Source of the DNA: Azolla caroliniana
Taxonomy: Eukaryota > Plantae > Polypodiophyta
Length of the DNA stretch: 64,000 nt
Assembly (NCBI GenBank): GCA_043228905.1
Contig: JBHGNT010000016.1
Location: 18,910,001-18,974,000 of the forward strand
Reading direction: 5' to 3'
Shown piece by piece: positions 10,846 through 37,515 of the stretch (positions within the stretch are counted from its first letter, which is position 1; every line of letters begins with the position of its first letter). The notes beneath the pieces were generated by a model. The model worked only from the letters and a program-made list of their open reading frames with translations, had not been told where the DNA came from and searched no databases. The translations under genes were made by a program, and so were the position numbers.

Positions 10846-11547
10846 GCCGCTCTCCATTATTTTTCTTTTCCTTCTCGGTTCCCTTATCTCATGGAGCCAT
10901 AACACTCATAAACCCTAATTTTCCTTATGGAAGCTATCTCTCACAGAAACCCTAATTTCTTTACGGAAGTTATCTCTCGTATAACCTAATTCTAATTTTC
11001 CCTACGGAAGCCATATCTCTCAAAACCCCTAATTTTTCTTTTCTATTAATCTCAGTAAACCTAAAACTTTTGAATCCCAATCTTGGGACATATTGTAATT
11101 TCTTTTCCTTTGCTAATGAAAAATTACTAATTTTCTCCTTTCTCTTAATTATTAAAAGTATAAACGCATGAATGTGATATCCTCTGGTCGGAGGCCCCGG
11201 GGTCCTGCCTCAAGTTCACGTATCCTTGTCGTATTTACGCGACATCTTTGGTGAACCTGATGTGAAACGAGGCGGTAGGAGGATATCTCATGGAGGCATA
11301 TAGATAGAAAGAGCCAAAGAGGTGGAGCCTATACGAGTTCGACCAATGGGTATCATCATTAAAGACCCACCAAAGTGCCATGCATGCTTTCGTTGAGTTT
11401 GAGTGTCGCTTCACACAACTCTCAGAGCGGGATCAAAGTAGGTGGGGGTGGATAAAGTCCGAATGTTTGTGAAATCAATAGAACTGAAGGAAAGGAAAGC
11501 CATTGGAATCCGACTTGAGGATGATGATGGTGCAAATGGCCTCACCG
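10846..11547 (+). mobile_element. Inverted copy of the D LTR, PBS and gag start
   Basis: Reverse complement of 10105-10845; LTR ends CGACA at 11244; PBS tggtgaacctgatgtga at 11249-11265. Confidence 0.88.
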
Positions 11548-16231: not shown

Positions 16232-16524
16232 CGTCCTGTTGAGAATCAAGCTCAACTTGGTCTAGTGTGTGAACTCACCTTGAGAGTGAAGAGACACACC
16301 AACGGTCAAGACTCACCATTATGTCACCACTTTGTATTCTAGCATTTAGTATGAGTCATAGAATCATATTCTATGACACATAACTTATGAGCTTTCACAT
16401 TCCCCATGCTCCATGAGGCTTGTAGTTAATGAAGAGAGAGGGTGACTACATAAAGCACCCTCCTCCCACCTTGTATAATGTTGAGTCTTTCTCCTTTGTT
16501 AATATACTTTTAACCTTGCATATA

Positions 16525-16563
<39 letters not shown>

Positions 16564-16771
16564 AGTTCACACCTATTCCGCTTCACAAGAATCCATCTCT
16601 TGGTTCTTTACATGGTATCAGAGCGATTTGGTAGCTCGATCTAGCCCATTCGCCTCATCGTGATCGTGTGTTGTGCTCCACACCGACGACCAAGAACCGG
16701 CTCATCGCTAGTGTAGCTTCGCGACATAGCTCGCATTCGAAGAGAGAAGAAGAAGAAGAAGAATCGACATA

Positions 16772-19625
16772 ATGAATACTCAAATGGGGAGTGCTCTCCC
16801 TACCGAGAAGTTGGATCGAAACAACTTCGCATCTTGGGAGTACAAGATGCACCAATACCTTGTCGGACAAGGCTATTGGAGCTACATCAAAGGAGCGCAT
16901 GAAGACCGACCCGCCGAAGCGGCTCCCGGATACGCAACATGGGAGCAAGCCGCAAGCCGCGTGATGTATTGTTTGGTGACATGTGTTCACGATCACATGC
17001 TCGGTTACATTCAAGAAGCCAAGACACCGAAGGAAGCGTGGGAAAACCTACGAAAGATTTTCGCCGCCAACACGACCGCGAGGAAGCTTCAACTCCACCA
17101 AGAGTTGAACAACATTCAACAAAGGGATATGTTCATCACAACATACACCTTGAAGATCAAGGAGCTTTGCGACTCGCTCGGCTCAATAAGTGTAAGTATA
17201 GATGATGATGAGATGGTGCAAATATGCCTCGGCGGCCTCGCACCACGGTTCGGCGCGATGCGAACCGCCATTCTAGCACGGGAGAAATCTCCCTCCTTCT
17301 TCGAGCTCCAATCAATGCTATTGGTCGAAGAAAACCACGTGCGTACAAGGAGTAATGAGTCAGAAGGCCACATGCTCTACACGCACTCTAATAGAGGAAG
17401 AGGACGCGGACGAGCGAGAGGCCGATTCGGCCAAGGACAAGGCGGACGAGGTCTGACCTACGACAACAACTCCCAATTTCGGCCGCAAAACGGAGGCCAA
17501 CGAGGAACCATCGCAAGAAGGGGGAGCTTCCACTCCGGCCCGAGCCGTCAAAACGCAACCGAATGCGGATATTGCGGAAAGCTCGGCCACCACGAAGAAG
17601 AGTGCCGAAGGAAGATGCGTGAATCAACTTCCACAAGCCGACAACTCACGAATTACGCGCACAATTCCAACTACGAAGAGTATAGCGGAATGTACGGGCA
17701 CAACTCCAACTATGAGGATCGTGGCAGAATGTACGCATACAAGTCCGACCGTGGCGGAATGTTCATGATGAAACATAGAGCAAAGTCTATGTCGGCCTCT
17801 ACCTCAACTAGTGCCCTCAATCCGGAGGACGTATGGTTTGTTGACTCCGGAGCCTCAAACCATATGACATCCCACAAAGAATGGTTTCTCGAACTTTGAG
17901 AGCCGGAGCGACCCGTTATGTCGAAACCGGAGATGACACTACACACCCGATTCGGCACATCGGCAATGTTCCGTTCGGCGAAAGAGGTAAGCAAACATAC
18001 ATTAAAAATGTCTTGCATGTACCCACCATCACAAAGAATTTGGTCTCGTTCGGCCAAATGGTTGAGCAAGGGATGCAAGTACGATTCGACCAAGAAGGGT
18101 GCTTCATCGAAAAAGAAGGCCGAATTATCGCACGCGGAAGAAGAGAGGGCCGGATGTTCATTCTCGATTCGCACGAGATGAAATCCGCCATGTTCGCGAA
18201 AAGCACGAAAGCCGACTCTGACATAGAGCTATGGCATAAGCGAATCGGCCACATCAATCTCAACAAACTCAAAGCAATGCAATCGAAAGGAGTCGTCATC
18301 GGACTCCCGACATTTAAAGAGAAGGAGATTGAAGGTGTATGCGAAGCGTGCCAATTTGGCAAGCAACATCGACACCCATTTCCGAAGGAGCGGAATGTGA
18401 GCAAAGGCGTACTCGCGTAATTCATTCCGATGTATGGGGTCCGGCTCAAACGGCGACATTCGACGGATGTCGATATTACATGCTCTTCATCGACGACTTT
18501 TCTAGGCACACTTGGATCTACCCGATGCGGCAAAAGAGCGAAGTGTTCAGACACTTCCAAGATTTCAAGAATGAAGTCGAGAAAGCCACGGGCCGACATG
18601 TACGATGCCTTTGATCGGATGGCGGCAAGGAGTACTTCTCGGACAATTTCACGGCGTATCTCCGAAAGGAAGGAATTCGGCAAGAATTCACTTGCCGACA
18701 CACTCCGCAACAAAACGGAGTAGCCGAGCGCAAAAATCGGCACATCGGAGAAATGTATCCTCGTAGGATACTCACTGGAGCAAAAGGGGTACAAGTGCTA
18801 CAACCCCTCAACTCGAAAATCTCAGGTAAGTCGAGACGTCGTCTTTGATGAGTCTGCATCCTAGTACGCACCAGAGACAACTTCAACTCCGACCCCGCTC
18901 AACCCGGAATCCACCGAACAAGAGATAGAGGATGAAGATCACCTTACGCGCATGTTCGAAGAAAGTCCGATCATGACCCGACCAAGCGGACCACAAGAGC
19001 CTTTGAGCGATCAAAGCACATCATGGCCTAGCCCGAAGATGGACAAAGGCAAGGCGAAAATGGCGGAATATGAAGACGATCGCTTCGACGACGATGAATC
19101 GACTCACTCACTCGACAATGAGTTCGGCGGTTTCGAGGTACCAATCGGATCCAAGAAAGCCCTCATCTCTGCGAATGAAAAGCTCCATAGATCCACTCGT
19201 GAAAAAAACCCCGTAAGCCGATTCGGCTACAACGATTATATGGCGTACCATTACGCCTTTATGATGAAGGTAGCGAAAGTACAGGAGCAGGAAACCTTTT
19301 CAGAAGCCGCGAAGGACCCGCGATGGATCGAAGCAATGAACGAGGAGATGCAAGCACTACGGAAGAACGAGACGTGGGATCTTGTTCCCACCTCACCACA
19401 CAAAAAGGCGATCGGATGCAGATGGATCTACAAGGTGAAGTATAACGCCGATGGCTCCGTAAACCGCTACAAAGCTCGACTCGTAGCGAAAGGATACGCT
19501 CATACGCATGGCGTCGACTACGAAGAGACCTTTGCCCCGGTGGCAAAGATGACGACGGTCCGGACCGTAATTGCGATTGCCGCGGCGAAAGGGTGGCACC
19601 TCCATCAAATGGATGTCAAGAACGC
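16772..19625 (+). pseudogene. A1 gag-protease-integrase and RT N-terminus (frameshifts, stops, integrase deletion near 18750)
   Basis: CGYCGKLGHHEEEC, WFVDSGASNHM, LWHKRIGH, IHSDVWGP, EQKGY, YKARLVAKGY, HQMDVKNA. Confidence 0.92.
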
Positions 19626-20764
19626 TGTCGTGGCGTGGCTCGCCTAGAAGCGTAGCGTTGCGTAGACAAAAGATATCGTGAAAGTGAGGAAGGAATCACT
19701 GGGATTATGGACGGAAGAGACGAAAGAGTAGAGATAGATAAATAGTGATCAACAAGATATGACAAGATAGGATATAGAATGATATTTGAAGCAATAAAAG
19801 AGATTTATAATTATTTGATGAAAGAGTTACAAAAGTGGTTGTTCACGTCGTTGAACCTCCGAACTTTGTCTTGCAAGGTAATCGCTCTTCTCTTTCTTGA
19901 TCGTAGACCACTACAATCTTCACTTCAATATTTTGATGAAGATAAGGCTCGAACCGCCTCCCTCTTGTTGAGAGTTGACCACCACGACCGCCAAGCTAGA
20001 GCTCCACCTTTCTCTTGAACTTCTTCCTTTCTTTCTCTATTTTATGGTATCTCTTATGTAATACATAATTTGATTGATATCTCATACATATCTCCCCTTT
20101 GATCTTCTCTTTCACCATTTAAATAGGTGCCCCCATGCATATGATGCATTGGAGGGTACAAATCATGCATGTAGTGCATGAAATGCATGTGATGCATGAT
20201 CGCCATTTGGCGTTCATGCATTACCTGTGATGCATGATAAACATCTCGCTCATTTGAGCTTTTATGTATGAAACAATATATGCAATAACAATAAACATGA
20301 AAACATAATCTTAAAGAGAAAGGGCCTATCCTAATGGTAGGTGTGTCAACTTTGATGTATGAGGTTGTGGGTTCGAGTCTCAAAATGCTATTGAATACAA
20401 CATACAACTTTATTTTTATATCATGAAGCAAATCCTTTATGTAAATATAAAGTATATATAAAGTATGCTTTATTTTATGTATATTACTAGTATAGAGTAA
20501 ATGGTAAGATTTGAGAGTCATAGGGTGGGGTTATTGGTTCAAGTCCTCTCTTGTTCGTGTAATATAATATATTTATCTATATATATATATATTATTTTTC
20601 TTTACATATATATAATATTATCATATGTGTTGTTAATATTATATAAAACATTATCAAATGTTATTTTAGTTACGTATTTATCTTATTGTAGACTTTTAAT
20701 GTGAAGCTTTCGTACTTCACGACATCCACCCCCTCTAGACCTGCACATCCTCCGGCATGTGCCA

Positions 20765-23700
20765 CTATCTTTCATCTTCATGTTGATCTATTGGAGGAGG
20801 TTCAAGCTCAAACCTTTTCTTAAATACTTTTATCCTCTTTCCAGCTACCACGTTTAGGATTAGTGTCCCATCCAATTCACTAAGCTTATAAGTAAAGTTA
20901 TCATATACTTTTCTTACTATATAAGGCCCAAACCATCTTTCAGCGAACTTGCGGACGGTGCTATGTTGATTATCTAAACTGCTATCATACACGAGCACCC
21001 AATCTCCTTCTTCTATTTTCTTAGGTCGAATTCTATGACTTTTATCAAAACGGATTTTATTCTTTAGTCGAGCCTCCTTCAATCGTTGGGCTGCTATTTC
21101 TATATCTTCAGGTCGACGCTCTAATTGTTGAATTCGCAAAGCAAGCAATTCTTCTCTGCTCACCTCTTCTCTCCATGGAATAGATATCCATGACATAATT
21201 GATTCTTCTATCGGCATGATGGGCTTTTGGCCAAGTATCAATTCAGCTGGCATGTACCCTGTTACTGAACTATGAGTTGTTCGATCCGCCCATAGTGCAT
21301 AAGGTAGCATGCGTGGCCAATCTCTTATTTTACCTTTACAGCTTTTCACGATCGCCTTAACTATTGGGCTATGTCCTCTTTCAATCTTTCCATTGGCTTC
21401 TGGATTATATGCAGTTGTAAGTGATAATTTGACCCCTATTCGGCTGAAGAATTCTCTAGCTTCATCAGAGTCGAGTTCTCCTCTATCTGCAATTATTTTA
21501 CCAACACACCCATAACGACATATTACATCTTCTAACAAAAATTTACATACAGCTCTAGTTGTTTTTTGTCGTAGTGGTCTTCCTTCTACTTGGTTTGTAA
21601 GGTCTTCTCTTGCTAGTACTAAATATCGCATTTGACCTTCCCCAAGTGGCATTGTCACTAGATCGACCATCCATTTATAATGCATTGATGATGAATATGT
21701 TGGTTTTAGCTCATCTCGATACCGGATAGTTGAATACCTCTGGCAAACCTCACAGATTTCCACAAATTTCGTTACATCTTTATACATATGTGGCCACCAA
21801 TACTTTTCTTTCAACTTCATAAATGTCGCCCATATGCCTCTATGTCCTGCCCACAAACTATCATGGAATTCATTAATTAATTTTCTCTTAATGTCATCCT
21901 TACAAATGACTCGAAGAGGATTTTCGGTTGGCCTTTTTGGACGCCTCCATAAATGCCCTTCATGTAAAAAAAACTTGAATGCTCGTCTTCGAAATTCATT
22001 TAATTGTTTCTTCGACCATGATGGGTTGGCTTCTTGAGTCTTTAGAAAATTTCCTATTTCGAACCATTGACCTTCATACTCTGTGTCTTTGAACATTATA
22101 CTTACATTAAACTCATCATGAGGCGTAATAGATTCTTGATGAGCAAATTGATGGCTTGTAGTTGCCCAGTTCTTATATTCAGTTTGCATCACCTTTTCAT
22201 TTATGAACCTTGCCCTTGACAGCATATCTGCAACTGGGTTGTCTTTTCCCTTTATATGCCGCAATTCTGGGTTTATGGTTCTGATGTATGCAATCCACCG
22301 AAGCATTGCAATATCTGGTGTCGTGCAACTTGCTATCATTCCAATGAGTGGCAAACAATCTGTTTCAACCACTACATCTGCTCCGATCAAGTAATCTCTA
22401 TCTGTTTTTAATGCAGTAAGCAAAGCCCACAATTCTCGTTTAACTTGTGCATAGTTTCTTTGTCTTTCATTTAATATCTTTGCTCCAAATCTAATAGCAT
22501 ATCGATGTTGGTCTTCATCTTCTTGGTTGATAACCCAACCGATCCCGATTGGGCTAGTATCAACTGTTACTATAATTGGTCTTTCACCTTTGTAGTCTGG
22601 TTGGCGAAGAATTGGTGCTTTCAGTAATGCTTCTTTCAGCTGTTGAACAACTTGTGTATGTTCATCAGTCCAAATAAACTTCTTTCCTTTTCTTAAAAGT
22701 TGGTAGAGAGGATCTGAGACATGTGCAAAGTGTGGTAACCAAATATGATAAAACACACATGCACCCAAAAATCTTCTCACCTCTGTTACCGAGTCGCAAA
22801 CTTCCTTCATATTTTGTATTGCATTAATTTTGATCGGTGAAGGCTTCCTCCCATACCACCCACACATATGACCAACTATTAGAACTTCGTTTTGCCCAAA
22901 GCAAGACTTTGTTCCTGATAGTGTCAAATGTACCTGCTCAAGCTTATTTAAAATACTTTCACAGTCATTAATGTGATCCATCACAAACTTTCTGCAACCA
23001 TTTCCAACCATAGTCTCATCTTTCTCTCTTTCTAAGCATCCCTTAATAGGAATATCATCTAAAAATGGCATAGTTACCTTTGGGATGTACTCATGTAGAA
23101 CCTTGTTCATTGCATTCATCATATGAGCAACTGAATTTGTCGCACCTTGAGGTAGAGTGCACATTCGAACCAACCCAATTGGTGTTTTCATTGTTGTGAT
23201 GTTGCGACTATCAATTGCTAGTTGAAATTGGTCGTATCCTGAATATAGGTCTCCCACAGAGTAAATCGCTCTTCCAGCAAACGCTTCCGCAAATTCATCA
23301 ACGATCGGTCCGATTCCCGCATTTCGGATTGTGACCTTGTTGACTGGTTGTAGATCTTGAATGAATCTTAGAGAACCATCTTTCTTTGGAACTGTGAACC
23401 ATCTATTGGAGTATGGTGCATTTGAAGGCTCTAAAATCTTCATCTTGACTTTATCCTTCAGCAGCTCCAACAATTGAGGTAATCGAGCTCTCGGTACTGC
23501 AATAGGTTTAAAATTCCAAGGAATATGAGGGATAGTAAATATTACCATTGGCGTCACCATCTTTGGATTTACACAACCAATCTCCTCAGCTTTGAATGCG
23601 AACGCTTTCCCATGCCTAAAGATCATTTCTTTGAAAGTCGCGATCTCTGATTGCAGAAGAAATTCACCCCTTCCGATTCTCAAGTTATTTATTGTCTCCG

Positions 23701-24247
23701 AAGTGAAGTGATGTCCAATCTTCTCTATTGGTCGAAGCATAGGCTCAGTTGCTGCTGCCTCCATCTTCTCTTCACTACCAATAGGTAATGGTATTGCAGC
23801 AGGTTTGACCTTTTTATCTATTGTTTTGTATTTTGTATTACATAAACTTTCTACTTCTTCATATTTACAATTATACCTATCAATCTCATAATACATATCA
23901 ATTGAGTTTACATGTATCTTTCTAACATTCTCATCATCTTCTTTCAAATACATTTCTAACTCTTCTAAAGTATTTGCAAAAGAAATTTCTTCCATAACAC
24001 TTTCAATCTGCTCTTCCATTTCAAGTACTCCATTATCCTTCAATGCCTGCTGAAACAGATTAGCATTCTTTTTCAAGTTCCTCTTGCATTCATACATCCT
24101 AGTCACACATATAGCACCACTTTCAGAAACATGAAATGACTTATTCATATGTTGTAATGCCCTATATGAGGGTCTTTTAATAATGGGACTATTGCAACCC
24201 TCACTCGCAACAGTCCTAGTCAAAAACCTGATTATCAAAATCATCAC
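20765..24247 (-). CDS. pol: Gypsy F Pol (RT, RNase H, integrase)
   Basis: KKDGSLRFIQDLQPVN, DLYSGYDQ, LPQGATNS, PFLDD, VDTSPIGIG, HHCC zinc finger, NGKIERGH, WFGPY; no chromodomain apparent. Confidence 0.95.
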   Translation of the reverse strand: MMILIIRFLTRTVASEGCNSPIIKRPSYRALQHMNKSFHVSESGAICVTRMYECKRNLKKNANLFQQALKDNGVLEMEEQIESVMEEISFANTLEELEMYLKEDDENVRKIHVNSIDMYYEIDRYNCKYEEVESLCNTKYKTIDKKVKPAAIPLPIGSEEKMEAAATEPMLRPIEKIGHHFTSETINNLRIGRGEFLLQSEIATFKEMIFRHGKAFAFKAEEIGCVNPKMVTPMVIFTIPHIPWNFKPIAVPRARLPQLLELLKDKVKMKILEPSNAPYSNRWFTVPKKDGSLRFIQDLQPVNKVTIRNAGIGPIVDEFAEAFAGRAIYSVGDLYSGYDQFQLAIDSRNITTMKTPIGLVRMCTLPQGATNSVAHMMNAMNKVLHEYIPKVTMPFLDDIPIKGCLEREKDETMVGNGCRKFVMDHINDCESILNKLEQVHLTLSGTKSCFGQNEVLIVGHMCGWYGRKPSPIKINAIQNMKEVCDSVTEVRRFLGACVFYHIWLPHFAHVSDPLYQLLRKGKKFIWTDEHTQVVQQLKEALLKAPILRQPDYKGERPIIVTVDTSPIGIGWVINQEDEDQHRYAIRFGAKILNERQRNYAQVKRELWALLTALKTDRDYLIGADVVVETDCLPLIGMIASCTTPDIAMLRWIAYIRTINPELRHIKGKDNPVADMLSRARFINEKVMQTEYKNWATTSHQFAHQESITPHDEFNVSIMFKDTEYEGQWFEIGNFLKTQEANPSWSKKQLNEFRRRAFKFFLHEGHLWRRPKRPTENPLRVICKDDIKRKLINEFHDSLWAGHRGIWATFMKLKEKYWWPHMYKDVTKFVEICEVCQRYSTIRYRDELKPTYSSSMHYKWMVDLVTMPLGEGQMRYLVLAREDLTNQVEGRPLRQKTTRAVCKFLLEDVICRYGCVGKIIADRGELDSDEAREFFSRIGVKLSLTTAYNPEANGKIERGHSPIVKAIVKSCKGKIRDWPRMLPYALWADRTTHSSVTGYMPAELILGQKPIMPIEESIMSWISIPWREEVSREELLALRIQQLERRPEDIEIAAQRLKEARLKNKIRFDKSHRIRPKKIEEGDWVLVYDSSLDNQHSTVRKFAERWFGPYIVRKVYDNFTYKLSELDGTLILNVVAGKRIKVFKKRFELEPPPIDQHEDER

Positions 24248-26390
24248 AGTCTTTTGGTATTAAATGATCACGAAGCTCTTGCTTGTTCCTCTCATGATTT
24301 GGGCGAACTGTCATAAATTGTACAGTTCGTCGTCCATCTTGGCTACGGATTTTCGCATAGGCAGAACCATTGTCGAGGACTTTGGTCTCCATTCGTACCG
24401 CTGTAATGTATGGTTGCCCTAGGATTATTGGATAGGTAGATCCTTCCTGCACAAAGAAATGTTGATCTACCTCTATATCACCAATAGTAACCTTTACATT
24501 TGGGCATGCACCAAATAAATCTTCCGTGACTGATGTGGCAGCTTTTACTCGCCAACCATGTTGAGTATCAATTGGCCATCTACCTTTCCTGTAAAAATCA
24601 GCACTCATTATATTTATTTCAGAACCATGATCAATAAGTGCCATCACGGGGTCTGGAACATTTCCAATCTTCACATGATGCTCAGTAGTGGCTCTTGCCC
24701 AACATTTGAGAGAGTAATGGCTTCTTACATCTGTTGAATTTATCATTGAGGTTGATGCATGTTGAGAGTCAACAACAATATTGTTTGACTCGTTGCTCAC
24801 CACTTCATATGCCACCTTCGGATTTGTCTCTTTAACCTGCTCATTTACTTGCTTCTTTCTTCGCACAATATCAATTATTTCATCATGAAATTCCTTTTTT
24901 GCAATACCTAACACTTCTCTTAGTGTAAATTCTACTCGACTGTCTAGTATTCTTGTTTCTAAAACTTTCTTTAAATCTGTATCCTTTTCAATATCAGACA
25001 TTAATTTGAATGAAGGACCAGATTTACCTTTTTCAACTTTTGCGTCCATCTCTTTTCTTTTGCTTTCTCTTGTTTCATGCTTTTTGGTTGAGCCAATCTC
25101 ATCATCCGATCTTTTCCTTTTTTCTTCCACTATCACCTCATGCTCTTGGTGTTCTGCCATCTGAGCATAGACCGTCATAGCATCTACTGGAACATCCCAT
25201 CCAGTGTTTTTCCTTACAGAATCTCCGGCAACACGAAGGTCTTCCATCTTCATCTTTTGCTTTTGTGCGGTACTTACAACCTTCTCCCAGAATGATGATC
25301 GGGATGGCATGTCATCGAGGCGCATTCCTGCCGTTGCCGAGTAATACATTGCGGAAGCCTTCTTTGCTTCAGCTTCTTCAAATTTAACCTTAACACCACC
25401 ATCACCAAAGTTCTTTGTAAGCGGAGTTCTAGTTTCAGTTAAGTAAATGTTACCATTTTTCCAATAGACCAAGTCCCGATTTTCCATGTCTTTATATTCT
25501 TCACAATCACGTAGACGATGTTCGAGACTATCACACCACATGCATCGAGGTCGAAATGGTTCCCTTGACCTCGAAGTCTGACCATTCTCAAGTTTTGCCA
25601 CTTTAATTGTTAGATCTTTCATACTTTGAACTAAATCATCAAGCAAAGACTCACTCTTAGTTTCGATCATTTCTCGTGGTTGATGGACCATTTCGTGTGA
25701 TGGTTCTCGACCAAGTCTTTGAACTTTGATGTTTTGCTCAAGCCGATTTGTGATTCCCACATGTGGTATTTGTAGCATTGCACCATTCCTTTGCATTCTT
25801 TTCATAAATTTATTACAAGCATTTGTTACCTCATTCCAATCTGCAGTTATACCATCCTCGGTATTTGGTACTTCAAGCATGAATTCCAATTCTTTTCTAT
25901 ATCTCTTGTCAACTGCCTGCAAAAATAAAGCAACCTTTTGCCAAGACAAAGAATTTCTTTCTTCTGGCTTTAAGTGTCCATACATCCTATCAAACTCTTT
26001 TTTTATGTCAGCCACAGATAACCCTTTATCTTCTTTTAAGATCCATTCATGAAATGAACGCATAGTAACTCGAGAGAAATCCTCATGAGCATATTCAGAC
26101 ACAAGTGCTTCTTTGAATGCATTCCAATCCAAACTATGCAATGCTTGTATTTCACGAATTCTATCTCTTAATTCCATTTCTACTAATTTATAAAAGTTTG
26201 CTATCATATTGACATCATTCACACCAAACATTTCCATTTCATCATAATATATATTGACATACTTTGAGATATTTGTGCCATCAAACACACCAATCTTCTC
26301 TCGGACTTCTCGTAAGGCATGAAATAATTGATCCTGATTCAATTTTTCAATAAATAACCTTACCGGATCCATTGTACTTGTACTTGCCAT
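24216..26390 (-). CDS. gag: Gypsy F Gag-protease
   Basis: 724-aa ORF downstream of the PBS; CMWCDSLEHRLRDC (CX2CX4HX4C) knuckle; ALIDHGSEINIM and IILGQPY aspartic-protease motifs. Confidence 0.92.
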   Translation of the reverse strand: MASTSTMDPVRLFIEKLNQDQLFHALREVREKIGVFDGTNISKYVNIYYDEMEMFGVNDVNMIANFYKLVEMELRDRIREIQALHSLDWNAFKEALVSEYAHEDFSRVTMRSFHEWILKEDKGLSVADIKKEFDRMYGHLKPEERNSLSWQKVALFLQAVDKRYRKELEFMLEVPNTEDGITADWNEVTNACNKFMKRMQRNGAMLQIPHVGITNRLEQNIKVQRLGREPSHEMVHQPREMIETKSESLLDDLVQSMKDLTIKVAKLENGQTSRSREPFRPRCMWCDSLEHRLRDCEEYKDMENRDLVYWKNGNIYLTETRTPLTKNFGDGGVKVKFEEAEAKKASAMYYSATAGMRLDDMPSRSSFWEKVVSTAQKQKMKMEDLRVAGDSVRKNTGWDVPVDAMTVYAQMAEHQEHEVIVEEKRKRSDDEIGSTKKHETRESKRKEMDAKVEKGKSGPSFKLMSDIEKDTDLKKVLETRILDSRVEFTLREVLGIAKKEFHDEIIDIVRRKKQVNEQVKETNPKVAYEVVSNESNNIVVDSQHASTSMINSTDVRSHYSLKCWARATTEHHVKIGNVPDPVMALIDHGSEINIMSADFYRKGRWPIDTQHGWRVKAATSVTEDLFGACPNVKVTIGDIEVDQHFFVQEGSTYPIILGQPYITAVRMETKVLDNGSAYAKIRSQDGRRTVQFMTVRPNHERNKQELRDHLIPKDCDDFDNQVFD

Positions 26391-26434
26391 ATTGATGTTG
26401 ATCTTTACTTTTGATGTCTCTTCTACTTCCCCGT

Positions 26435-26452
26435 TTCACGTCGGGTTCACCA
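26435..26452 (-). promoter_or_regulatory. Primer-binding site, tRNA-Trp
   Basis: Plus strand TTCACGTCGGGTTCACCA matches the 3' end of plant cytosolic tRNA-Trp(CCA) as recalled; same 18-mer at 35178-35195. Confidence 0.85.
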
Positions 26453-27556
26453 AATTGTGTCGTGGCGTGGCTCGCCTAGAAGCGTAGCGTTGCGTAGACA
26501 AAAGATATCGTGAAAGTGAGGAAGGAATCACTGGGATTATGGACGGAAGAGACGAAAGAGTAGAGATAGATAAATAGTGATCAACAAGATATGACAAGAT
26601 AGGATATAGAATGATATTTGAAGCAATAAAAGAGATTTATAATTATTTGATGAAAGAGTTACAAAAGTGGTTGTTCACGTCGTTGAACCTCCGAACTTTG
26701 TCTTGCAAGGTAATCGCTCTTCTCTTTCTTGATCGTAGACCACTACAATCTTCACTTCAATATTTTGATGAAGATAAGGCTCGAACCGCCTCCCTCTTGT
26801 TGAGAGTTGACCACCACGACCGCCAAGCTAGAGCTCCACCTTTCTCTTGAACTTCTTCCTTTCTTTCTCTATTTTATGGTATCTCTTATGTAATACATAA
26901 TTTGATTGATATCTCATACATATCTCCCCTTTGATCTTCTCTTTCACCATTTAAATAGGTGCCCCCATGCATATGATGCATTGGAGGGTACAAATCATGC
27001 ATGTAGTGCATGAAATGCATGTGATGCATGATCGCCATTTGGCGTTCATGCATTACCTGTGATGCATGATAAACATCTCGCTCATTTGAGCTTTTATGTA
27101 TGAAACAATATATGCAATAACAATAAACATGAAAACATAATCTTAAAGAGAAAGGGCCTATCCTAATGGTAGGTGTGTCAACTTTGGTGTATGAGGTTGT
27201 GGGTTCGAGTCTCAAAATGCTATTGAATACAACATACAACTTTATTTTTATATCATGAAGCAAATCCTTTATGTAAATATAAAGTATATATAAAGTATGC
27301 TTTATTTTATGTATATTACTAGTATAGAGTAAATGGTAAGATTTGAGAGTCATAGGGTGGGGTTATTGGTTCAAGTCCTCTCTTGTTCGTGTAATATAAT
27401 ATATTTATCTATATATATATATATTATTTTTCTTTACATATATATAATATTATCATATGTGTTGTTAATATTATATAAAACATTATCAAATGTTATTTTA
27501 GTTACGTATTTATCTTATTGTAGACTTTTAATGTGAAGCTTTCGTACTTCACGACA

Positions 27557-28788
27557 ACGCCTTTCTACAAGGCGAATTAGAAGAGGAGGTGTACATGATC
27601 CAACCACCTGGCTTCAACTCGAGCACCCATCCGAAAGCGGTTTGTCGACTCAAGAAGCCACTCTATGGCCTCAAGCAAGCACCGTGTGCTTGGCATTCGA
27701 AGATAACGCAATATCTTCATCAAATCGGCTTCCGTATGTCAAAATCGGACAACTCCCTCTACATACGAAGCGATTCCGCAAGTCCGACCGTTATCATCTT
27801 ATATGTTGATGACCTAGTCATTGGAGGTGAGCATCTCGTTGAAATCAATAAGGTCAAATCCCTCCTGTCCGACAAGTTCGAGATGACAGACATGAAGGAA
27901 CTCCACTACTTCCTCGGCATTGAGGTAATTCGAACTCCGGCCGGAATCATGATCTCTCAACGACACTACATCCTCAACTTGTTATACAAGTTCGGGATGG
28001 CTGAGTGCAAATCCGTGGCAACCCCGCTTGAGCTTAATCTCAAACTAGATGCGAACTCCGGCACCAAAGCGTGTGAGACGACTCAGTATCGGCAACTCAT
28101 CGGGAGTCTCATCTACCTCACGATCACACGACCCGATCTCAATTATCCGGTTGGTCTCCTTAGCCAATTCATGCAAACACCGTGTGATACTCACTTGGAT
28201 TGCGCTAAGCGAGTTCTACGCTACGTGAGCGGCACAATGGATTGCGGCATCCTCTACAAGACTGCGATGCCAATACGACTCAAGGGGTACACAAACGCCG
28301 ATTGGGCCGACTACAAAGCTGATAGAAGATCAACCTCTGGATTTGTTTTCTCCCTTGGCAGCGTAGCAATATCCTGGAGTAGCAAGAAGCAGCCTACCAT
28401 CGCTCTTTCGAGTACGGAGGCGGAATATAGGGGCACAGTCGTAGCTGCATGTGAAGCCATATGGTTCAAGAGGATTTTGAAGGATCTGGGCGTACCCATC
28501 AAGGATCCTACTTCCCTTTACTGCGACAACATGAGCAGTATCTATCTGGCTCGGAACCCGGTGTTCCACGCGCCGACAAAGCACATCGAAGTGCACTATC
28601 ACTTCATCCGAGAGCGCGTTCTGGCTGGCGATGTCGACCTACAGCACATTAGCACCAATCTTCAAACGTTCGACATCTTCACTAAAGCCTTAGGAGCCGA
28701 CAAGCTATGGCAATTCATGACCGATCTCGGATTGACGATCCCTGACCTGCCAAGCTTGAGGGGGAGTAATGAAGACACTACGCAATAA
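27557..28788 (+). pseudogene. A1 RT C-terminus and RNase H
   Basis: Resumes (N)AFLQGELEEEVYMIQPPGF, LYVDDLVI, WSSKKQPTIALSSTEAEY, TKHIEVHYHFIRE, ends SLRGS. Confidence 0.93.
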
Positions 28789-29307
28789 CGCGTGGATTCC
28801 GCAACCACGCAACGAAGCAGCAAAGAACCGATCTACCGCGCAAAGCCGCGAAGAACTACGCACGCAAGCAAAAGCACAGACTTCGCACAACGCAAGCTGG
28901 AGCACGGATTCCGCAACTCCGCATAAAGCGAGCCGACGCGAGTCGACGCGGTCTTCGGAACGCGAGTTGAAGCAGATTTTGGATACCGTATGAAACCGAC
29001 CCGACTTGAGCTTGAGGGGGCGTGTTGAGAATCAAGCTCAACTTGGTCTAGTGTGTGAACTCACCTTGAGAGTGAAGAGACACTCCAACGGTCAAGACTC
29101 ACCATTATGTCACCACTTTGTATTCTAGCATTTAGTATGAGTCATAGAATTATATTCTATGACACATAACTTATGAGCTTTCACATTCCCCATGCTCCAT
29201 GAGACTTGTAGTTAATGAAGAGAGAGGGTGACTACATAAAGCACCCTCCTCCCACCTTGTATAATGTTGAATCTTTCTCCTTTGTTAATATACTTTTAAC
29301 CTTGCGT

Positions 29308-29366
<59 letters not shown>

Positions 29367-31145
29367 GTTCACACCTATTCCGCTTCACAAGAATCCATCT
29401 CTTGGTTCTTTACACGTCCATCATATTGTATTGCTAATTGCCCCCAAGAATCATATTTGATGGGTTGATCCATGTAGAGTGAGTCAAACCTTGTTTGACA
29501 AAAGTAATGATTCAAGAACTTGACATCTTTTCACGATATAGGTTTTCATAAACAATCATTCTATGTTGGAATTTTCGTCTTGGTTTGGCTTTGCTTTGGT
29601 ATAAACTCTATCATAATTCTAAGCAAATAAGCTAAATCTTTTAGTGGGAGTTTCACTCACGAACAGAAAGTGTGTGGTTGATTGACATGGATCATCACCA
29701 TCTAGCAATTAGAATTGGCACCTATATTAACCTCTAGTACTTCACATGAAGACTTGTAGAATATTACAAATTGAGCCTCTCTTTCCTCCAAGTCTAGCAT
29801 TAAAGGCATATGCAAGCCATGGCCCGAACTTAGATCCTATGAATTTAGGAGTGTGGCTGTTCTACAAATGACCTATGTTTTCTATAGGTTCTTTCTAATG
29901 GTATATGCCAACTTTTTAAATTGTGTTTAATCTTACTCGAGCATTGTCCATATGTTCAGATGAGCAATGACTCTTAATAGTGTAAAGAATCGGGTATGAT
30001 TCTTGTGTAGCGGAAGAGATGTGTGTTATGTGTATGTGTGAGAGGAAAGAGAGAAGAGAAGAGAAATACAAGATAGATTAGAAAAAGGAATACTCAAGAA
30101 GGTGTATATTCACAAGTAGAATAGCAAATACAAAATGTAGCATTACAAGGAGTCATAACTGACTTGGTATGAAGTATGAGGAGGGTGCTTTATATATAGT
30201 CACCCTCTCTCTTCATTAACTAACTACAACAACCACTCTCTCTTGGGGATTGTGAAGACACATAGTCATGGGGAATATGTAACTCATTAGTTATGTATCA
30301 TGGAATATGATTCTATGATGCATAGTTAATGTATAGAGAGTAGTGGTGTGACTCTTGACCTTTAAGTAATCATAGATTCTCAAAAGGTGTGTTCACACGT
30401 TGCACTATGTTGAGCTTGATTCTCAACACGCCCCCTCAAGCTCAACTCGGGTTGGTTCCTTTCGATTGATGTCCGCTTCGGTTGGTATCCGATTCAGACA
30501 ATCTCCGGTGTTCGCTTCGGCTCGTACCCAGTTCCGACGGTATCCGGTTCTCGCTAGTACTCCCCCTCAAGCTTGGCAAGTCAGGGATCCTCAATCCAAC
30601 GTCTAACATGAATTGCCAAAGCTTGTCGGCTCCTAGGGCCTTGGTGAAGATGTCGGTTGTCTGAAGATTCGTGTTGATGTGGAGAAGATCGACATCTCCG
30701 ACCTGAACACGCTCTCGAATGAAATGGTAGTGCACTTTGATATGCTTTGTGCGTGCGTAGAACACTGGGTTCCGAGCCAGATATATACTACTCATGTTGT
30801 CGTAGTAAATGGGAGTCAGATCCTTGATGGGAACGCCCAGATCCTTCAAACTCCTCTTGAGCCATACGGCTTCACATGCAGCTATGGTTGCGCCCCTGTA
30901 TTCGGCCTCTGTACTTGAAAGTGCGATGGTAGGCTACTTCTTACTACTCCAAGATATTGCTCCGCTACTGAGTGAGAAGAAAAATCCAGAGGTCGATCGT
31001 CGATCAATTTTGTAGGCGGCCCAGTCGGCATCCTGTACCCTTTGAGTTGAATTGGTGTGGTCGATGCGTAGAGCATGTCATAATCCATTGTGCCGCTCAC
31101 ATATCGTACTACCTGCTTAGCATAATCGAAATAGATATCTCGCGC

Positions 31146-31255
31146 GGTCGCGTTGTTACGCACGTGCGTGCAGAAAGGGCGGGTCCACGGGGGTCTCGAA
31201 CTGGAGAAGAAGGGGAGCCGAGAAGACAATTCCGGTCGCGTTCCAGAGGCAACCG

Positions 31256-31296
<41 letters not shown>

Positions 31297-34200
31297 GGAG
31301 AGTGTGCGCGCGACACTGACTCCTTTGCACAGGAAGCAAAGGGGTTGTGCTTCCGACACCACCAAGTACACCGATATGCATAAACAAACGCAAATGTGTA
31401 TATTACAGGGGAAATAATACAAATCCGGCTTCGAGCCGGACCAAGGTAGGTTACAGCCGCAGTCGGTTGCCAAGCCGTCGGTCGGGGAGCTCACGGGTTG
31501 TCGCACCGAGCGGGGTCTTGCATAGAACCGAGCAGAAGCAAACCTCAAACGGGGGGGGGGGGGGGGATACAACCACGGCCCGAGCCGGCTATGCACAGAA
31601 GACGAGAAACTAACCTAACAGCTTGCCATCATAGGTATTGCTCGACTCCTCGAGAAGGAGCAGAAAAGAAACGAAGAAGAAAGGAAAGAATGTCGCTAAC
31701 CCTAGAAAGAAACACAAAACAGTATACCTTTACGACTCAAAATGGGCAACCCCTTCACAAGAGGCACTCCCTTCCTTTTATAGAACAAGGAGGGAGATGC
31801 GTTACAATGTGGGATAAATCCCTTATTACATGGGACCCTCTGTCCCGACTTAACACCTATTATTACAAGGGTAAGTACACATGGTGCACACCGCCGATTC
31901 TCACGATATTCTTCGATTCCGCCTAGGGACGGTTTTCTCCACGACATCCGCCCCCACCTAACCGCGCATCCACCGGCATGCACCAACATAGACCCTTGTC
32001 GGAGAAGACCGGCCCGTGCTTACCCTTCGTCCTCCGGATCGCCATTCGCTTCAAACCGGTCGTCCTCACTATCCAAGTCGCTCGGGTCCGGTTCATCCTC
32101 CTGCGCTTGCCTCCTCGTAGGCTCGTTCGACCCGTCGATAGGTCAATTGTCGCGATTCCGTAATACGCGTACTTCGTTGTTGGTCCCCCCACTTGGCCGA
32201 ATGCACGCTCCGCTATCCGCCGCAAGTCCGGGTCCTCTGCTTGAGGAGCGCCCGTAACGGCCCACTTGGCGTCAGTCCGTTGCCGCGTTGTCTTGGTCGT
32301 TGTTATCGTTTGTCACTCTCGGTCTCACACGGGCTCTCGGGCCGGATGCCGGAGTCTCCAGAGTCGGTGCGTGCGAATTCCCGGCACCACCGCTTCCCTT
32401 TCGCCTGCGGGTGTCCTCTACGTCCGAGGAATACCCGTACTAGCCGTCTTGGCCCTCTTCCGTCTTGCGCCGTTGCCGCCGCCGGGTTGAAGCCTTTCGC
32501 TCACCGTCGTCCCCTCGCCCCCACCAACTTGTCATCTCGGGCTTGGCTTGCCACGCTGACTAAGCGGCCGAGATCTCCGAAGCGGGCGTGGAGGATCCTT
32601 CTCCGGCCTGTACATCTTCCCGGTTTCTAACCCGAGCAGTTCGTTACGCACCCCCCCTTTCGCGTTCCCGGCACCACCGCGTCTGTGCCGTCCTTTAGTC
32701 GTGCTCTGATTCGGCCCTCGATGGCCACTCGCACGATTCTTCTTCCGCTCTGGATGTGCCCTTCCCGGCTTGGCACACCGCCTGTACTTGCCCTTACCGG
32801 CTCCCTCGGAAACCGTAGCCGGCCGGTAGGGGGGGGTTTGCAATTAGACAGCTTCCGTCTTGCCGACTATTGTCGATGTTGGGTCTCGTTCCCTGCCGCC
32901 ACCATCCTTCTTTCTCGGTCTTACGTTGCCACGTTGGCCGAACAGCCAGAGTCTCCGGATCGGTGTGAAGATCCCATAGGACCGGTCTTCGTTTCGTTGC
33001 TTGCCGAAATTCGGGTGTCTTTCGTTTGAGTCCCTCCCAGACTCTCCTCGTGTCTCCCGCGTAGTCAGGTCCCGCTTCCCGCCGCCACCAGCCTTCTCTC
33101 ACGGTCTCACGTTGCCACGCTGGCCGAACTGCCGGAGTCTCCGATCTAGTGTGGGGATCCTGTAGGATCGGACTTCCTTATGCCCATGACCTTGCCGATA
33201 GGTCCGATTTAGTTCGTAGCCACTTCGCCGGCCTGATACCTTCTTGCTCTGCTTTCCGTCGTCCGATCACATTCACCTGCCGCCACCGTCCTTTCCTATA
33301 GGACTCACGCCGGCTCTCGGGCCGACTGCCGGATCGGTGTGAGGATCCTCGTGGGACCTCGGTTTGCCCGCCTTGCCGCCGCCACCGTTCTTCCCTCTAG
33401 GTCTCACGCCGGCTCTTGTTGCCGGCCGCCGGAGTCTCTAGAACCGGTGTGTGTAAGGTCGCTGCAGCACCGCTCGCCGTCTTCGCCGTCCTATCACGTT
33501 CACCTGCCGCCACCGATCTCTCCTATAGGACTCACGCCGGCTCTCAGGCCGACCGTCGTATCGGTGTGAGGATCTTTGTAGACCGCCCATCCGCAATTCT
33601 TTGCCTTAGTCCCCTCGCTGCCACCGATCGTCACTCTAGGTCTCACGCCGGTTCTCGGGCCGACCGCTGGAGTCTCTGGAACCGGTGTGAAGGATCCTCC
33701 TTGGGCTCGTTTTATCCCAGACCCTTATCCCGGGTCGTCTTCGTCCGCAAGTCAAAAGGGTGGCTTGCTCCACACCCTCTCCCGTGGTACCGACGTATTG
33801 ATCTTCCCGGCCTCTTCGTAGGCCTGCTCTCTCCCCTCTTCTGGATCGATTATCCGGAAGTCCGCTCCGCCTGGTTCTCATTTGGGCCCGCCTGTCATTC
33901 TCTGGATTTCCGGGTCCCATTCTCCTATCGCCACCAGTCTCTCCTATAGGACTCACGCCGGCACTCGGGCCGACAGCCGGATCGGTGTGAGGATCTACGT
34001 AGGACTGGTCTTCGTTCTTCTCTTCATCTTTTGTACTTCTCCCGAACTCATCGTCGCTCTCCTCGTTGTGCTCCTGCCTCCATCTTCCAACTCTTTCGGT
34101 CTCACGTTGCCACATCGGCTGAACTACCGAACTCTCTGGACAAGATGTGGGGTAACCGATTTCGCAACATCTTTCGACGACTCGTCCAGGGCCATCGACC

Positions 34201-35997
34201 CTTTCAGTGGTGTCGGTCGAAAGCATCCGCTATGTGATCAACCAAGCCCCGCCTGGGCTTGATTCTCCAGTGTCCGGAGTTTCGGCTCTGATGCCGACCT
34301 TGCCAGACTCGAGAGGGTGTTATGTTCCGTACCCTCTCCCGTGGTACCATCGTACCGATCTTCTGCTATCTCGTGGGGCAAGTTCATCTCCTCGGCCTCG
34401 GCTCGCAGCCTCGATCTTTCCTCTTCCTCGAGCATCGCCTCGAGAGTGGCGTACGCCTCTGCAATCCTGGCCCCGAAACCGGCCCTTGCCGACTCTCTTT
34501 GTCATTCGGCCTCTTCCCGCTCTAATGGCCTTCCTCTTAGCCTTCTTGGCTCATTCGTCATCTAGTCGTTGGCATACCCTTCTGACCTTCGACCAGTCCT
34601 CGGTAAGGCCATTCGCTCTGTGCTCGTCTTCGAGCTCAATCCCGAGGGCCTCCCGTTCCGCTCGGTCAATCGACCTGACGAACAACAGGACTTTATTTGC
34701 CCCCACCAAACCTTGTTCCCGCTCCGGGAGCCGAGCAAGCCGTCGCTCGAACTCTCGGAACGCCTTCATTGCGCCCCGGTGGGTCTTCGCTGACGCAACC
34801 CACTGGTCGAAGCCGCATCGTCCCCGGCTCTTCCGCTGTCCTCCATATGCTTGCAGGAGCGCCTCTTCGAAGGCCTCCCACGAACTATGAGCTTCTCGGA
34901 GCTCCTTCACTTCCGCGTGCATACGGATGATAACGACCCGACAGAAGAACTCCAGCCTCAACGCCTCGTCTACGCCTCACTCCTCCATTTCCGCGTTGTA
35001 GGCTTCCAAGTAGTATGGGACCTTGTCCCTGTTGAAACGGCTGACTCTTTCGACCACTCGCTCAACCGCTTGTTGCGCCATCTCTCTTCTTGTTGTTGCT
35101 CGTCCAAACTCCCTCACCGCTTCGACAAAAAGTTGTGCAAAGTCGTCTTCTTCCAACTCCATCCTCCCTTGCCGCCCTTCACGTCGGGTTCACCAAATAT
35201 GTCGCATTGTTACGCGCGTGCGTGTAGAAAGGGCGGGACTACGGGGGTCTCGGACTAGAGAAGAAGGGAAGCCGAGAAGACGATTATGGTCGCGTTCCGG
35301 AGGCAACCGAACAAGAGAGAGAGAGAGAGAGACAAAGGAAAGGGAGAGTGTGCGCGCAACACCGACTCCTTTGCACAGGAAGCAAAGGGGTTGTACTTCC
35401 GACACCACCAAGTACACCGATATGCACAAACAAACACAAATGTGTATATTACAGGGGAAATAATACAAATCCGGCTTCGAGCCGGACAAAGGTAGGTTAC
35501 AGTCGTAGTCGGTTGCCAAGCCGCCGGTCGGGGAGCTCATGGGCTGTCGCGCTGAGCGGGGTCTTGCACAGAACCGAGCAGAAGCAAACCTCAAAGGGGT
35601 GGGGGGGGGGGGGGGGGATACAACCATGGCCCGAGCCGGCTACACACAGAAGAAGAGAAACTAACCTAACAGCTTGCCGTCATAGGTATTGCTCGACTCC
35701 TCGAGAAGGAGCAGAAAAGAAACGAAGAAGAAAGGAAAGAATGTCGCTAACCCTAGAAAGAAACACAAAACGGTATACCCTTACGACTCAAAATGGACAA
35801 CCCCTTCACAAGAGGCGCTCCCTTCCTTTTATACAACAAGGAGGGAAATGCATTACAATGTGGGATAAATCCCTTATTACATGGGACCCTCTGTCCTGAC
35901 TTAACACCTATTATTACAAGGGTAAGTACACATGGTGCACACTGCCGATTCTCCCGATATTCTTCGATTCCGCCTAGGGACGGTGTTCTCCACGACA
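31146..35997 (-). mobile_element. Element E: non-autonomous gag-only Gypsy derivative
   Basis: About 800-bp LTRs 31146-31946 and 35200-35997 ending CACGACA, Trp PBS, PPT-like tract at 31947-31955, gag from 35162 with stops and homologous to F gag; no RT or RNase H. Confidence 0.9.
32890..34130. repeat. GC-rich imperfect repeat array inside element E (about 8 copies)
   Basis: Core gccgccacc...tagg(a/t)ctcacgccggctctcgggccgac...ggatcggtgtgaggatc near 32895, 33080, 33279, 33375, 33505, 33617, 33929 and 34077. Confidence 0.8.
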
Positions 35998-36627
35998 GTG
36001 GAGTTTGAATGAATTGGCTAAGGAGGCCAACCAGATAGTTGAGGTCGGGTCGAGTGATCATGAGATAGATGAGGCTCCTGATCAGTTGTCGATATTGAGT
36101 CGGCTCGCACTCGTCTGTGCCAGAGTCGGCATCTAGTTTGAGGTTTCGATCGAGAGGGGTTGCCACATATTTGTACTCTGTCATCTCAAACTTGTATAAT
36201 ACATTGAGAATGTAGTGCCATTAAGAGATCATAATGCCAGTCCGAATCCGAATTACTTCGATGCCTTGGAAGTAATGAAGTTCCTTCATGTCCGTCATCT
36301 TGAATTTGTTGCTGAGGAGGGATTTCACCTTGTTGATGTCGACTAAACTTTCTCCTCCAAAAAACAGATCATCCACATATAGGATGATGACAATCAACCT
36401 TCTAGAGTCGTTTCGTACGTAGAGGGAGTTGTCGGATTTCGACATTCGAAAGCCGATTTGATGAAGATATTGCGCAATCTTCAAATGCCAAGCACGCGGT
36501 GCTTGCTTGAGGCCATAGAGAAGCTTCTTCAGTTGGCATACGGCTTTCAGATGAATGTTGGATTCGAAGCCGGGTGGTTGTACCATGTACACCTCCTCTT
36601 CTAATTTGCCTTGAAGAGAAGGCGTTC

Positions 36628-37079
36628 TTGACATCCATTTGGTGGAGGTGCCACATTTTCGTTGTTTCCCGATGACGACTCTAGAAGCCCGAATGTCGGC
36701 CGAGTCCTTGAATTTCGGGAGCCCGATGACGACTCCTTTCGATTGCATTGCCTTGACCTTTTGGAGGTTGATATGGCCAATATGCTTGTGCCATAACTCT
36801 ATGTCGGAATCGGCTTTCATGCCCTTTGCAAACATGGCCAAAATTGGCCAATTTCATCTTGACATCCATTTGGTGGAGGTGCCACATTTTCGTTGTTTCC
36901 CGATGATGACTCTAGAAGCCCGAATGTCGGCCGAGTCCTTGAATTTCGGGAGCCCGATGACGACTCCTTTCGATTGCATTGCCTTGACCTTTTGGAGGTT
37001 GATATGGCCAATATGCTTGTGCCATAATTCTATGTCGGAATCGGCTTTCATGCCCTTTGCAAACATGGCCAATTTCATC
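36628..37079. repeat. 230-bp tandem duplication in A2 pol
   Basis: cttgacatccatttggtggagg... starts at 36628 and at 36858; the copies are nearly identical. Confidence 0.95.
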
Positions 37080-37515
37080 TCGTGCGAGTCGAGAATGAAC
37101 ATTCGACCCTTTGTCCGTGAGCGATGAGTCGGCCCTCTTTTTCGATGAAGCAACCGCCTTGATTAAATCGTACTTGCATCCCTTGCTCAACAATTTGGCC
37201 AAAGGAGACCAAATTCTGCGTAATGGCTGGTACATGCAAGACATTTTTAATACAATTTTGGTTACCTTCTTTGCATAATGGGACATTGCCGATGTGTCGA
37301 ATCGGATGCATAGTGTCGTCTCTGGTTTCGACATAGCTGGGTTGGTCGAGCTCTCGAAGTTCTTGGAACCATTCTTGATGAGACATCATATGGTTCGAGG
37401 CACCGGAGTCGACGAACCATACGTCTTCCAGACTAGATGCGCTATTCAAAGTAGAAGCCGACATAGAATTTGCTCTATGTCTCATCACGAACATTCCGCC
37501 ACGATCGTCATAGTT

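Follow-up and report, generated by a model that had tools for sequence, protein, structure and literature searches.

A probable pseudoknot-stimulated -2 frameshift signal, apparently derived from a -1 signal, in a Ty3/gypsy retrotransposon of Azolla caroliniana

The window analyzed here (64,000 nucleotides of Azolla caroliniana contig JBHGNT010000016.1) carries on its minus strand a complete Ty3/gypsy LTR retrotransposon of 7931 bp whose interior is filled by two ORFs, and the junction between these ORFs is probably the site of a pseudoknot-stimulated -2 ribosomal frameshift that evolved from the -1 signal of the element's relatives by the likely loss of one base. On balance we also favor the fuller statement, namely that this is a natural and selected pseudoknot-stimulated -2 shift in an LTR retrotransposon, that it came from a lineage-wide -1 signal by a single-base loss which left the knot and the landing codon unmoved, and that -1 and -2 families live in one genome. 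That frameshifting is used at all, and that its direction is -2 rather than +1, we infer from comparative sequence analysis. An earlier note on this DNA had already read the junction as a candidate -2 signal, and that part of it is supported; it had missed both the derivation from a lineage-wide -1 signal and the rival offered by an in-frame pair of splice donor and acceptor sites.

The element and its family

The LTRs, the target-site duplication, and the domain order (Gag-PR-RT-RH-IN) make the element a member of Ty3/gypsy (Table 1). ORF1, which spans 24216–26435 from stop to stop, has a DUF4100 match (E 6.8e-6, just under the family cut-off), and its translation contains LIDHGSE, which we take to be the protease motif. 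One of its homologs carries PF13975 and another is named "Peptidase A2 domain-containing"; the named protease homologs are from Physcomitrium, Adiantum, and Riccia. In ORF2 a linker of ~129 codons precedes the RT, RNase H, and integrase domains. This linker (23840–24226, minus strand) is without a Pfam match, yet -1 and -2 families alike conserve it as protein, with motifs like SVDGA/SESGA and ISFxxTL. The overlap of frames that had been described as a gag/pol junction is present; the protease sits in ORF1, and hence the junction is more precisely one between Gag-PR and RT-RH-IN.

Table 1. Features of the element and of its ORF1/ORF2 junction (window positions)
Feature	Position	Strand	Remarks
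5′ LTR	26458–27556	-	1099 bp, TG...CA, 1 mismatch vs 3′ LTR
3′ LTR	19626–20724	-	1099-bp partner of 5′ LTR
Presumed primer-binding site	26437–26452	-	begins TGG, 5 nt past 5′ LTR
Polypurine-tract-like stretch	20725–20736	-	adjoins 3′ LTR
Target-site duplication ACGC	19622–19625 and 27557–27560	+	4 bp, NCGN type
ORF1 (Gag + aspartic protease)	24216–26390	-	724 aa from first ATG, C-terminus QVFD*
ORF2	20765–24259	-	1164 codons stop to stop; +1/-2 frame vs ORF1
Pol-frame AUG	24242–24244	-	
Candidate slip site AG_GUU_UUU	24222–24229	-	relatives NG_GAU_UUY
Spacer GACUA	24217–24221	-	5 nt; 6 nt in -1 relatives
ORF1 stop UAG	24216–24218	-	stem 1 begins at its G
Stem 1, 5′ arm (predicted)	24205–24216	-	conserved core 24216–24209
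Stem 1 loop = stem 2, 5′ strand (predicted)	24198–24204	-	GUGAGGG
Stem 1, 3′ arm (predicted)	24186–24197	-	
Stem 2, 3′ strand (predicted)	24166–24173	-	ACCCUCAU
Possible intron	24047–24227	-	181 nt; donor CAG/GU at slip site, in-frame acceptor CAG/G

The element is likely Phygy-like, judging by its 4-bp NCGN target sites, its short, chromodomain-free build, and its named homologs; homologs and target sites also make a seed-free plant the likely host. No chromodomain family is found among the domain matches of the element, and among the 20 copies fetched from the genome the 5′ target 4-mer is NCGN in all 18 that have called ends, 12 of these 18 having perfect target-site duplications. A preference for insertion at NCGN has been attributed to Phygy (Neumann et al. 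2019, PMC6317226; this and the other papers identified here by PMC numbers are cited from parts of their text), a clade of plant non-chromovirus Ty3/gypsy elements with a likewise short, coding-filled interior, 4-bp NCGN sites, and Physcomitrium patens homologs; what is cited here of the main text of that paper states nothing about the mode of pol expression in Phygy.

The family is young and active. Four of the 20 fetched copies have identical LTRs and seven have both ORFs at full length, and the polymorphisms common to several copies in the RT-IN region comprise 35 non-synonymous and 53 synonymous changes. The identical-LTR copies, the full-length ORFs, and the selection on RT-IN rule out a decayed single copy. 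Broken copies distort a tree built from 21 family rows, and no dating was taken from it. Two copies, of the L001 and L006 types (G000:C10:1345488 and 1352326), lie 6838 bp apart, about the length of the element minus one LTR, which suggests a tandem array with a common LTR.

The element has inserted into an older Copia element, within the RT region of the latter; this Copia element (window 16237–29414) has direct repeats at 16237–16612 and 29023–29414 and RVT_2 matches on both sides of the Gypsy element. More Copia-like fragments lie on the opposite strand at 30558–37507 (repeats 31147–31946 / 35201–35997), and among them is a 216-nt tandem duplication at 36626–37072. Elsewhere in the window there are a cluster of direct and long inverted repeats at 8789–11547 (e.g., 10105–10734 vs 11547–10915, 93%), which may be nested pieces of DNA transposons or foldback elements, and two degenerate short-period tandem arrays at 49459–49900 and 57795–58162 (~8-nt and 14-nt units).

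The junction and its constancy among copies

ORF1 ends CAG GTT TTT GAC TAG (24230–24216, minus strand), and the same nucleotides are read AGG TTT TTG ACT in the ORF2 frame, which is +1/-2 relative to ORF1. The -1 frame is closed at once (GGT TTT TGA), read-through of the TAG meets a TGA five codons further on, which shuts that route to pol expression, and an AUG in the pol frame lies at 24244, upstream of the ORF1 stop; all this is as the earlier note had described it. A canonical -1 site has its downstream ORF in the -1 frame, an arrangement found in the relatives (below) and absent here. The layout expected of a -2 site, NUU_UUU with the product ORF in the -2 frame, is present, and two of the 30 fetched copies examined at the junction deviate from it.

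The junction is constant across copies. Its 22 nt recur exactly 74 times, no version with an inserted T was found, it is free of indels in 30 of 30 fetched copies, and no indel is listed in the contigs of the seven sequencing runs that cover the stretch; these exact copies, indel-free copies, and read contigs rule out a sequencing or assembly error in the run. One DNA contig has a 67-nt skip across the junction, without splice ends. Six Ts had been thought sufficient to overturn the -2 reading, but the copies that have them (GTT TTT TAC TAG; 10 matches; sister family L032) owe them to a substitution, and their frame is still +1/-2.

A degenerate pattern of the junction has 92 matches in the genome, of which 91 are in the family and one is a copy of a -1 family with G_GGU_UUU. 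Among the 91 family matches, in all of which the 5-nt spacer follows from the pattern's construction, 82 read GGTTTTTG and nine read GGTTTTTT. The older copies and L032 have UUU UAC where the dominant form has UUU GAC. Pol is intact and in the +1/-2 frame in 26 of 30 family copies, and in the remaining four it is broken further down. Two separate insertions (L177, G000:C19; L183, G000:C4) both read CAA GAU UUU GAC; that they are one duplicated insertion is ruled out by their different flanks. Such a sequence would block the -2 slip, as well as the possible splice donor discussed below, and it counts against the -2 reading. The changes that these two copies have in common (six non-synonymous and two synonymous in gag, one and two in pol) are too few to judge trans mobilization.

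The pseudoknot

The predicted 12-bp stem with two G-U pairs that begins 5 nt past the U-run is the minimum free energy hairpin (z -3.08 and -3.16 in two folding runs, with 1 and 2 of 200 shuffles as good), and the strand preference claimed for it is borne out by the opposite strand, which folds less well (-16.9 vs -21.1 kcal/mol). Its loop, GUGAGGG, is complementary to CCCUCAU (24172–24166) 13 nt later. Both stems of the H-type pseudoknot that had been proposed are retained, but a 12-bp stem 1 together with a fully paired 7-nt loop is not; it leaves no loop 1, and an H-type geometry without loop 1 is not feasible. The lower 8 bp of stem 1 are paired in 35–38 of 38 sequences and the upper four pairs are broken in 9–21 of the 38, and a stem 1 of ~10 bp with a stem 2 of 7–9 bp appears more likely.

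Covariation is seen in both stems, as judged against controls that correct only partly for relatedness: in stem 1, changes on both sides occur at 10 of the 12 pairs (62 such cells vs 28 in shuffles) and 84.6% of cells are paired, vs 25–41% in slid controls; in stem 2, pairing with the own partner scores 15.8, vs 13.2 when partners are swapped (none of 10,000 permutations attains 15.8), 11.1 for shuffled and 8.6 for distant sequence, and the own partner is best or tied for only 11 of the 38 sequences. The test of stem 1 used an alignment of 38 of the 55 junctions (near-duplicates dropped) because the pseudoknot finder missed or misfolded relatives with more than two upper-stem mismatches (8 of 55 were returned as "noPK"), and stem 2 was scored with a purpose-written script. 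The 3′ pseudoknot that canonical -1 sites have 5–9 nt past the slip site is present here on this comparative evidence. By covariation the predicted pseudoknot is real, and its homologs stand at the -1 sites in all the related families.

Related families with pol in the -1 frame

Pol is in the -1 frame in nearly all relatives. An RT anchor was present at 59 of 80 metagenome loci, and among these pol is in -1 and overlaps the gag end in 56, is in +1/-2 in two, which belong to the same clade as the window family, and is broken in one. A second family of the A. caroliniana genome is intact and in -1 at 26 of 30 loci; a further set from this genome is so at 29 of 50 loci, all with the stem at 6 nt, the remainder of the 50 being broken, unanchored, or members of the window family. 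The large -1 families in this genome have 67–75% protease identity to the window family. No relatives were found in the viral contigs searched.

The -1 junction is nearly always G_GAU_UUY followed by 6 nt and a stem-loop of 31 nt; its loop is rich in G and pairs with C-rich sequence 11–16 nt further on. Among 55 distinct junctions, the stem anchor lies at 6 nt in 40 of the 46 that are -1 and at 5 nt in all nine that are -2; the -1 junctions off the 6-nt anchor are five without an anchor match (best stem 6, 6, 7, 6, and 6) and one mis-hit. The C-terminus of most homologous Gag-PR proteins is DF, or DF followed by five residues (120 proteins, judged by eye; many database gene models excepted), and the subgroup L069, L086, and L088–L090 retains five extra gag codons past the slip site. 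Variant slip sites that are still -1 include G_GGU_UUU (L088, L089, and L225) and, in L080, GG_GUU_UUC with a 6-nt spacer; L080 fits the spacer idea developed below, yet it also makes plain that such a site is open to competition from -1. From this textbook layout we infer that the relatives use -1 frameshifting. The combination of G_GAU_UUY, 6 nt, and a covarying pseudoknot is a candidate -1 signal that lies between protease and RT across the lineage, having been seen in L033–L110 (metagenome) and in L111–L140 and L195–L239 (the Azolla genome).

Switch from -1 to -2

The window family and its sister family L032 have AG_GUU_UUU, the stem at 5 nt with both stems kept, and pol in +1/-2. L032 is 89% identical in protease and 83% identical in RT to the window family (L001), with a dS of 0.77–0.95, and no close copy of it is present in the A. 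caroliniana genome, where the best match is 70–78%. In a midpoint-rooted tree, from which five of 46 rows with fewer than 150 RT residues were omitted, the six -2 rows are one clade (support 100/100) within 35 -1 rows. The degenerate junction pattern revealed no further independent -2 switches, and apparent +1 cases in the -1 families L099, L204, and L232 were rejected as single copies with an indel elsewhere. This is one evolutionary event seen in two families, and the association of a short spacer with -2 counts as a single observation and not as nine.

The alignment is gap-free from the U-run to the stem, and the U5 run occupies the same columns in the -1 and -2 groups; so does the UUU that would be in the A site after a -1 slip in the relatives and after a -2 slip here. 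The pol-frame peptide is homologous from its first residue (FLTRTVASEGCNSP vs FLDRAFTGRGCDSP and FLERALTKRGCDGP). Between L001 and L032, dN/dS is 0.09 for RT and 0.24 for the linker that runs from slip site to RT; the linker contains a frame-keeping 24-nt deletion and no stop, and the other frames contain 10–23 stops. These substitution patterns show purifying selection on the family's own predicted pol, right up to the slip site.

Proposed mechanism

In a -2 frameshift at this site the ribosome would pause with GUU in the P site and UUU in the A site as the knot reaches the mRNA entry channel. The tRNA-Phe could then re-pair perfectly two bases back and the tRNA-Val would re-pair poorly; alternatively, tRNA-Phe might slip alone from the P site. 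It is the A-to-U change in the slip site that would make this re-pairing possible, since on the ancestral GAU UUU the tRNA-Phe could re-pair fully one base back but would meet AUU at two. Relative to the knot the U5 run has stayed in place and the incoming frame has shifted by one base, so ribosomes would have to slide two bases to reach the same UUU. A fraction of them should slip two back and make a Gag-protease-Pol fusion with the junction peptide ...NQVF-LTRTVASEG..., and most should stop at UAG and make Gag-PR. Slips of -1 would end at UGA with a Gag-PR one residue shorter and would for that reason be harmless.

The -2 frameshift is supported by the family-wide frame, by the covarying pseudoknot, and by two changes in the clade, the A-to-U change in the slip site and the stem one base closer, because both are changes that publications link to -2 slips. 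In arteriviruses G_GUU_UUU allows full A-site re-pairing in both -1 and -2 and limited P-site re-pairing (PMC6675879), and -2 slipping is optimal at spacers 1–2 nt shorter than those for -1, with stem-loops and pseudoknots alike, with a -2 range of 5–8 nt (PMC3458567). The same study reports that the -2 peak with the IBV knot is at 6 nt, not 5, and that, when the stimulator was an oligonucleotide, -2 was lost once the first U of U6A was replaced by A, C, or G (PMC3458567); by analogy, this 6-nt optimum and this loss with a non-U first base would count against -2 here. The bad re-pairing expected of tRNA-Val on AGG counts against it as well, and so does the reliance of the arterivirus site on a protein stimulator at ~10 nt in place of a structure.

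Alternative explanations

A +1 frameshift at the same site, with tRNA-Phe moving from UUU one base ahead, to UUG (or, in the older form, to UUU), to give QVF-TR and with the knot acting like that of antizyme, is unlikely, even though it calls for the same frame and the same selection pattern as -2 and would survive the CAA GAU UUU GAC variant. On paper it re-pairs better than -2 in the GUU UUU UAC form, but the form that prevails and has been expanding recently (82 of 91 matches) offers UUG only, the G after the U5 run spoiling +1 re-pairing and leaving -2 unaffected. Antizyme +1 shifting does use a 3′ pseudoknot, at 3 nt (PMC5009743); the knot here is, however, the homolog of a -1 stimulator, no slow or stop codon lies where the intact knot would pause the ribosome, and with UAG in the A site stem 1 would already have to be open. 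Nor does the junction have the cognate +1 codon next to a slow or stop codon that marks +1 systems (Ty1, Ty3, UUU_CGN, and shifty stops; motifs in part from PMC8230311 and PMC11818727). In the analogous U6A case +1 was excluded by experiment (PMC3458567).

Splicing is an improbable route. The A-to-U change would have created a donor (CAG/GU), and removal of 181 nt up to an acceptor at 24047 would bring Gag-PR in frame with Pol; a donor and an in-frame acceptor with a short pyrimidine stretch are indeed found at homologous places in both families, when sites are scored by a crude match count against a splice-site consensus. The donor is nevertheless weak at +3 to +6, and there is no in-frame acceptor common to both families before the conserved segment. 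A further argument against splicing comes from inside the supposed intron, where 30 codons are 77% identical as protein (dN/dS ~0.10) and 10 of 17 synonymous but only 8 of 73 non-synonymous sites have changed (Fisher p 7.5e-5); they are conserved as protein, and so appear to be translated in the pol frame. The pseudoknot, which is also inside, was kept while its linker diverged. Spliced-pol systems have an Ogre-like intron between PR and RT that is non-coding and contains stops, unlike the region here, which is open and under selection.

Independent synthesis of Pol from the AUG at 24244, by termination-reinitiation, internal entry, or a short transcript, is improbable to the same degree. It too would survive the GAU variant, and eight of the nine -2 junctions have an in-frame AUG upstream of the stop, but this AUG is six codons upstream in the window family and three in the sister, with no single conserved site, and such an AUG occurs in the same, there useless, frame in 19 of 46 -1 junctions. 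It would also leave the conserved U-run and 3′ pseudoknot unexplained, and a Pol made apart from Gag would have to reach the particle by some other route. The AUG is likely a by-product of Asp/Asn codons.

It is very improbable that the family makes no Pol of its own by recoding, either borrowing it from the large co-resident -1 families, whose similarity in protease was given above, or depending on RNA polymerase slippage on the U-run: purifying selection on its pol at two time depths argues that its own Pol is made and matters, five or six Us are few for a polymerase to slip on, and a conserved RNA pseudoknot placed at ribosome spacing agrees with translation.

Comparison with known recoding sites

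Canonical -1 sites with G_GAU_UUU (that of pea enation mosaic virus, PMC5009743, and those of the element's own relatives) resemble the probable -2 site in having a UUU-ending slip site, a short spacer, an H-type pseudoknot, and a stop right after; the window family differs from its -1 relatives in having GUU for GAU, 5 nt for 6 nt, pol in -2, and a closed -1 frame. The arterivirus nsp2TF/nsp2N site, RG_GUU_UUU, has the same slip sequence, a -2 product, and an immediate -1 stop (PMC6675879, PMC7939443, PMC11818727), and in PRRSV nsp2N is, like the Gag-PR expected from -1 slips here, a product cut short at such a stop (PMC5009743). As described in the parts of those papers cited here, arteriviruses use no RNA structure but a C-rich motif 9–11 nt downstream that is bound by nsp1beta and PCBP (~10 nt). 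The window family, in contrast, has a covarying pseudoknot at 5 nt; the arterivirus C-rich motif CCCANCUCC is absent at 9–11 nt downstream of its slip site. The element and the arteriviruses are unrelated, so their identical slip site is convergence.

TVV1 makes a -2 shift at CC_CUU_UUU, which is also an NUU_UUU site at a capsid/polymerase junction, and its sister viruses TVV2–4 use -1 (PMC5009743, PMC8230311); unlike the window element TVV1 is a dsRNA virus, for which the cited parts of these papers name no 3′ pseudoknot, and its junction was confirmed by peptide mapping. The engineered U6A spacer series (Lin, Gilbert, Brierley 2012, PMC3458567) and the mammalian antizyme cassette in yeast (PMC5009743) are likewise pseudoknot-stimulated, short-spacer -2 shifts, but they are artificial or in a foreign host, and that of the window family would be natural and selected. 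Phage Mu, arteriviruses, and TVV1 are the users of -2 shifts given in a 2016 review, whose summary of a 2003 survey of LTR elements has only two kinds of plant element in which gag and pol occupy separate frames, both +1 and unexplained (PMC5009743).

Searches of open-license PubMed Central and bioRxiv texts turned up neither a retrotransposon with -2 frameshifting nor a -2 shift driven by a pseudoknot in nature, and no account of a frameshift signal in Phygy; subscription journals and supplements may hold more. Phage tail chaperones are another precedent for a change of slip size within a lineage. Such change has precedents; for the switch of a retrotransposon from -1 to -2 none was found in the literature searched.

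Implications

Natural -2 frameshifts are few, and structure-driven ones are known from engineered spacers or foreign hosts. If the reading given here is true, the whole seed-free-plant Gypsy lineage appears to use a -1 signal of G_GAU_UUU plus pseudoknot, of which no earlier description was found in the literature searched, and some of the "+1 frame" gag/pol overlaps in plant elements may conceal -2 slips. Closely related natural cassettes with one pseudoknot and different slip sizes would make the roles of spacer tension and re-pairing testable with natural pairs, for which GG_GUU_UUC with 6 nt and -1 is a natural control. The -1 and -2 families living in one plant genome would then be an evolutionary version of the spacer-length experiment, and they would indicate that one step can be enough to move a recoding signal into another class with Pol kept.
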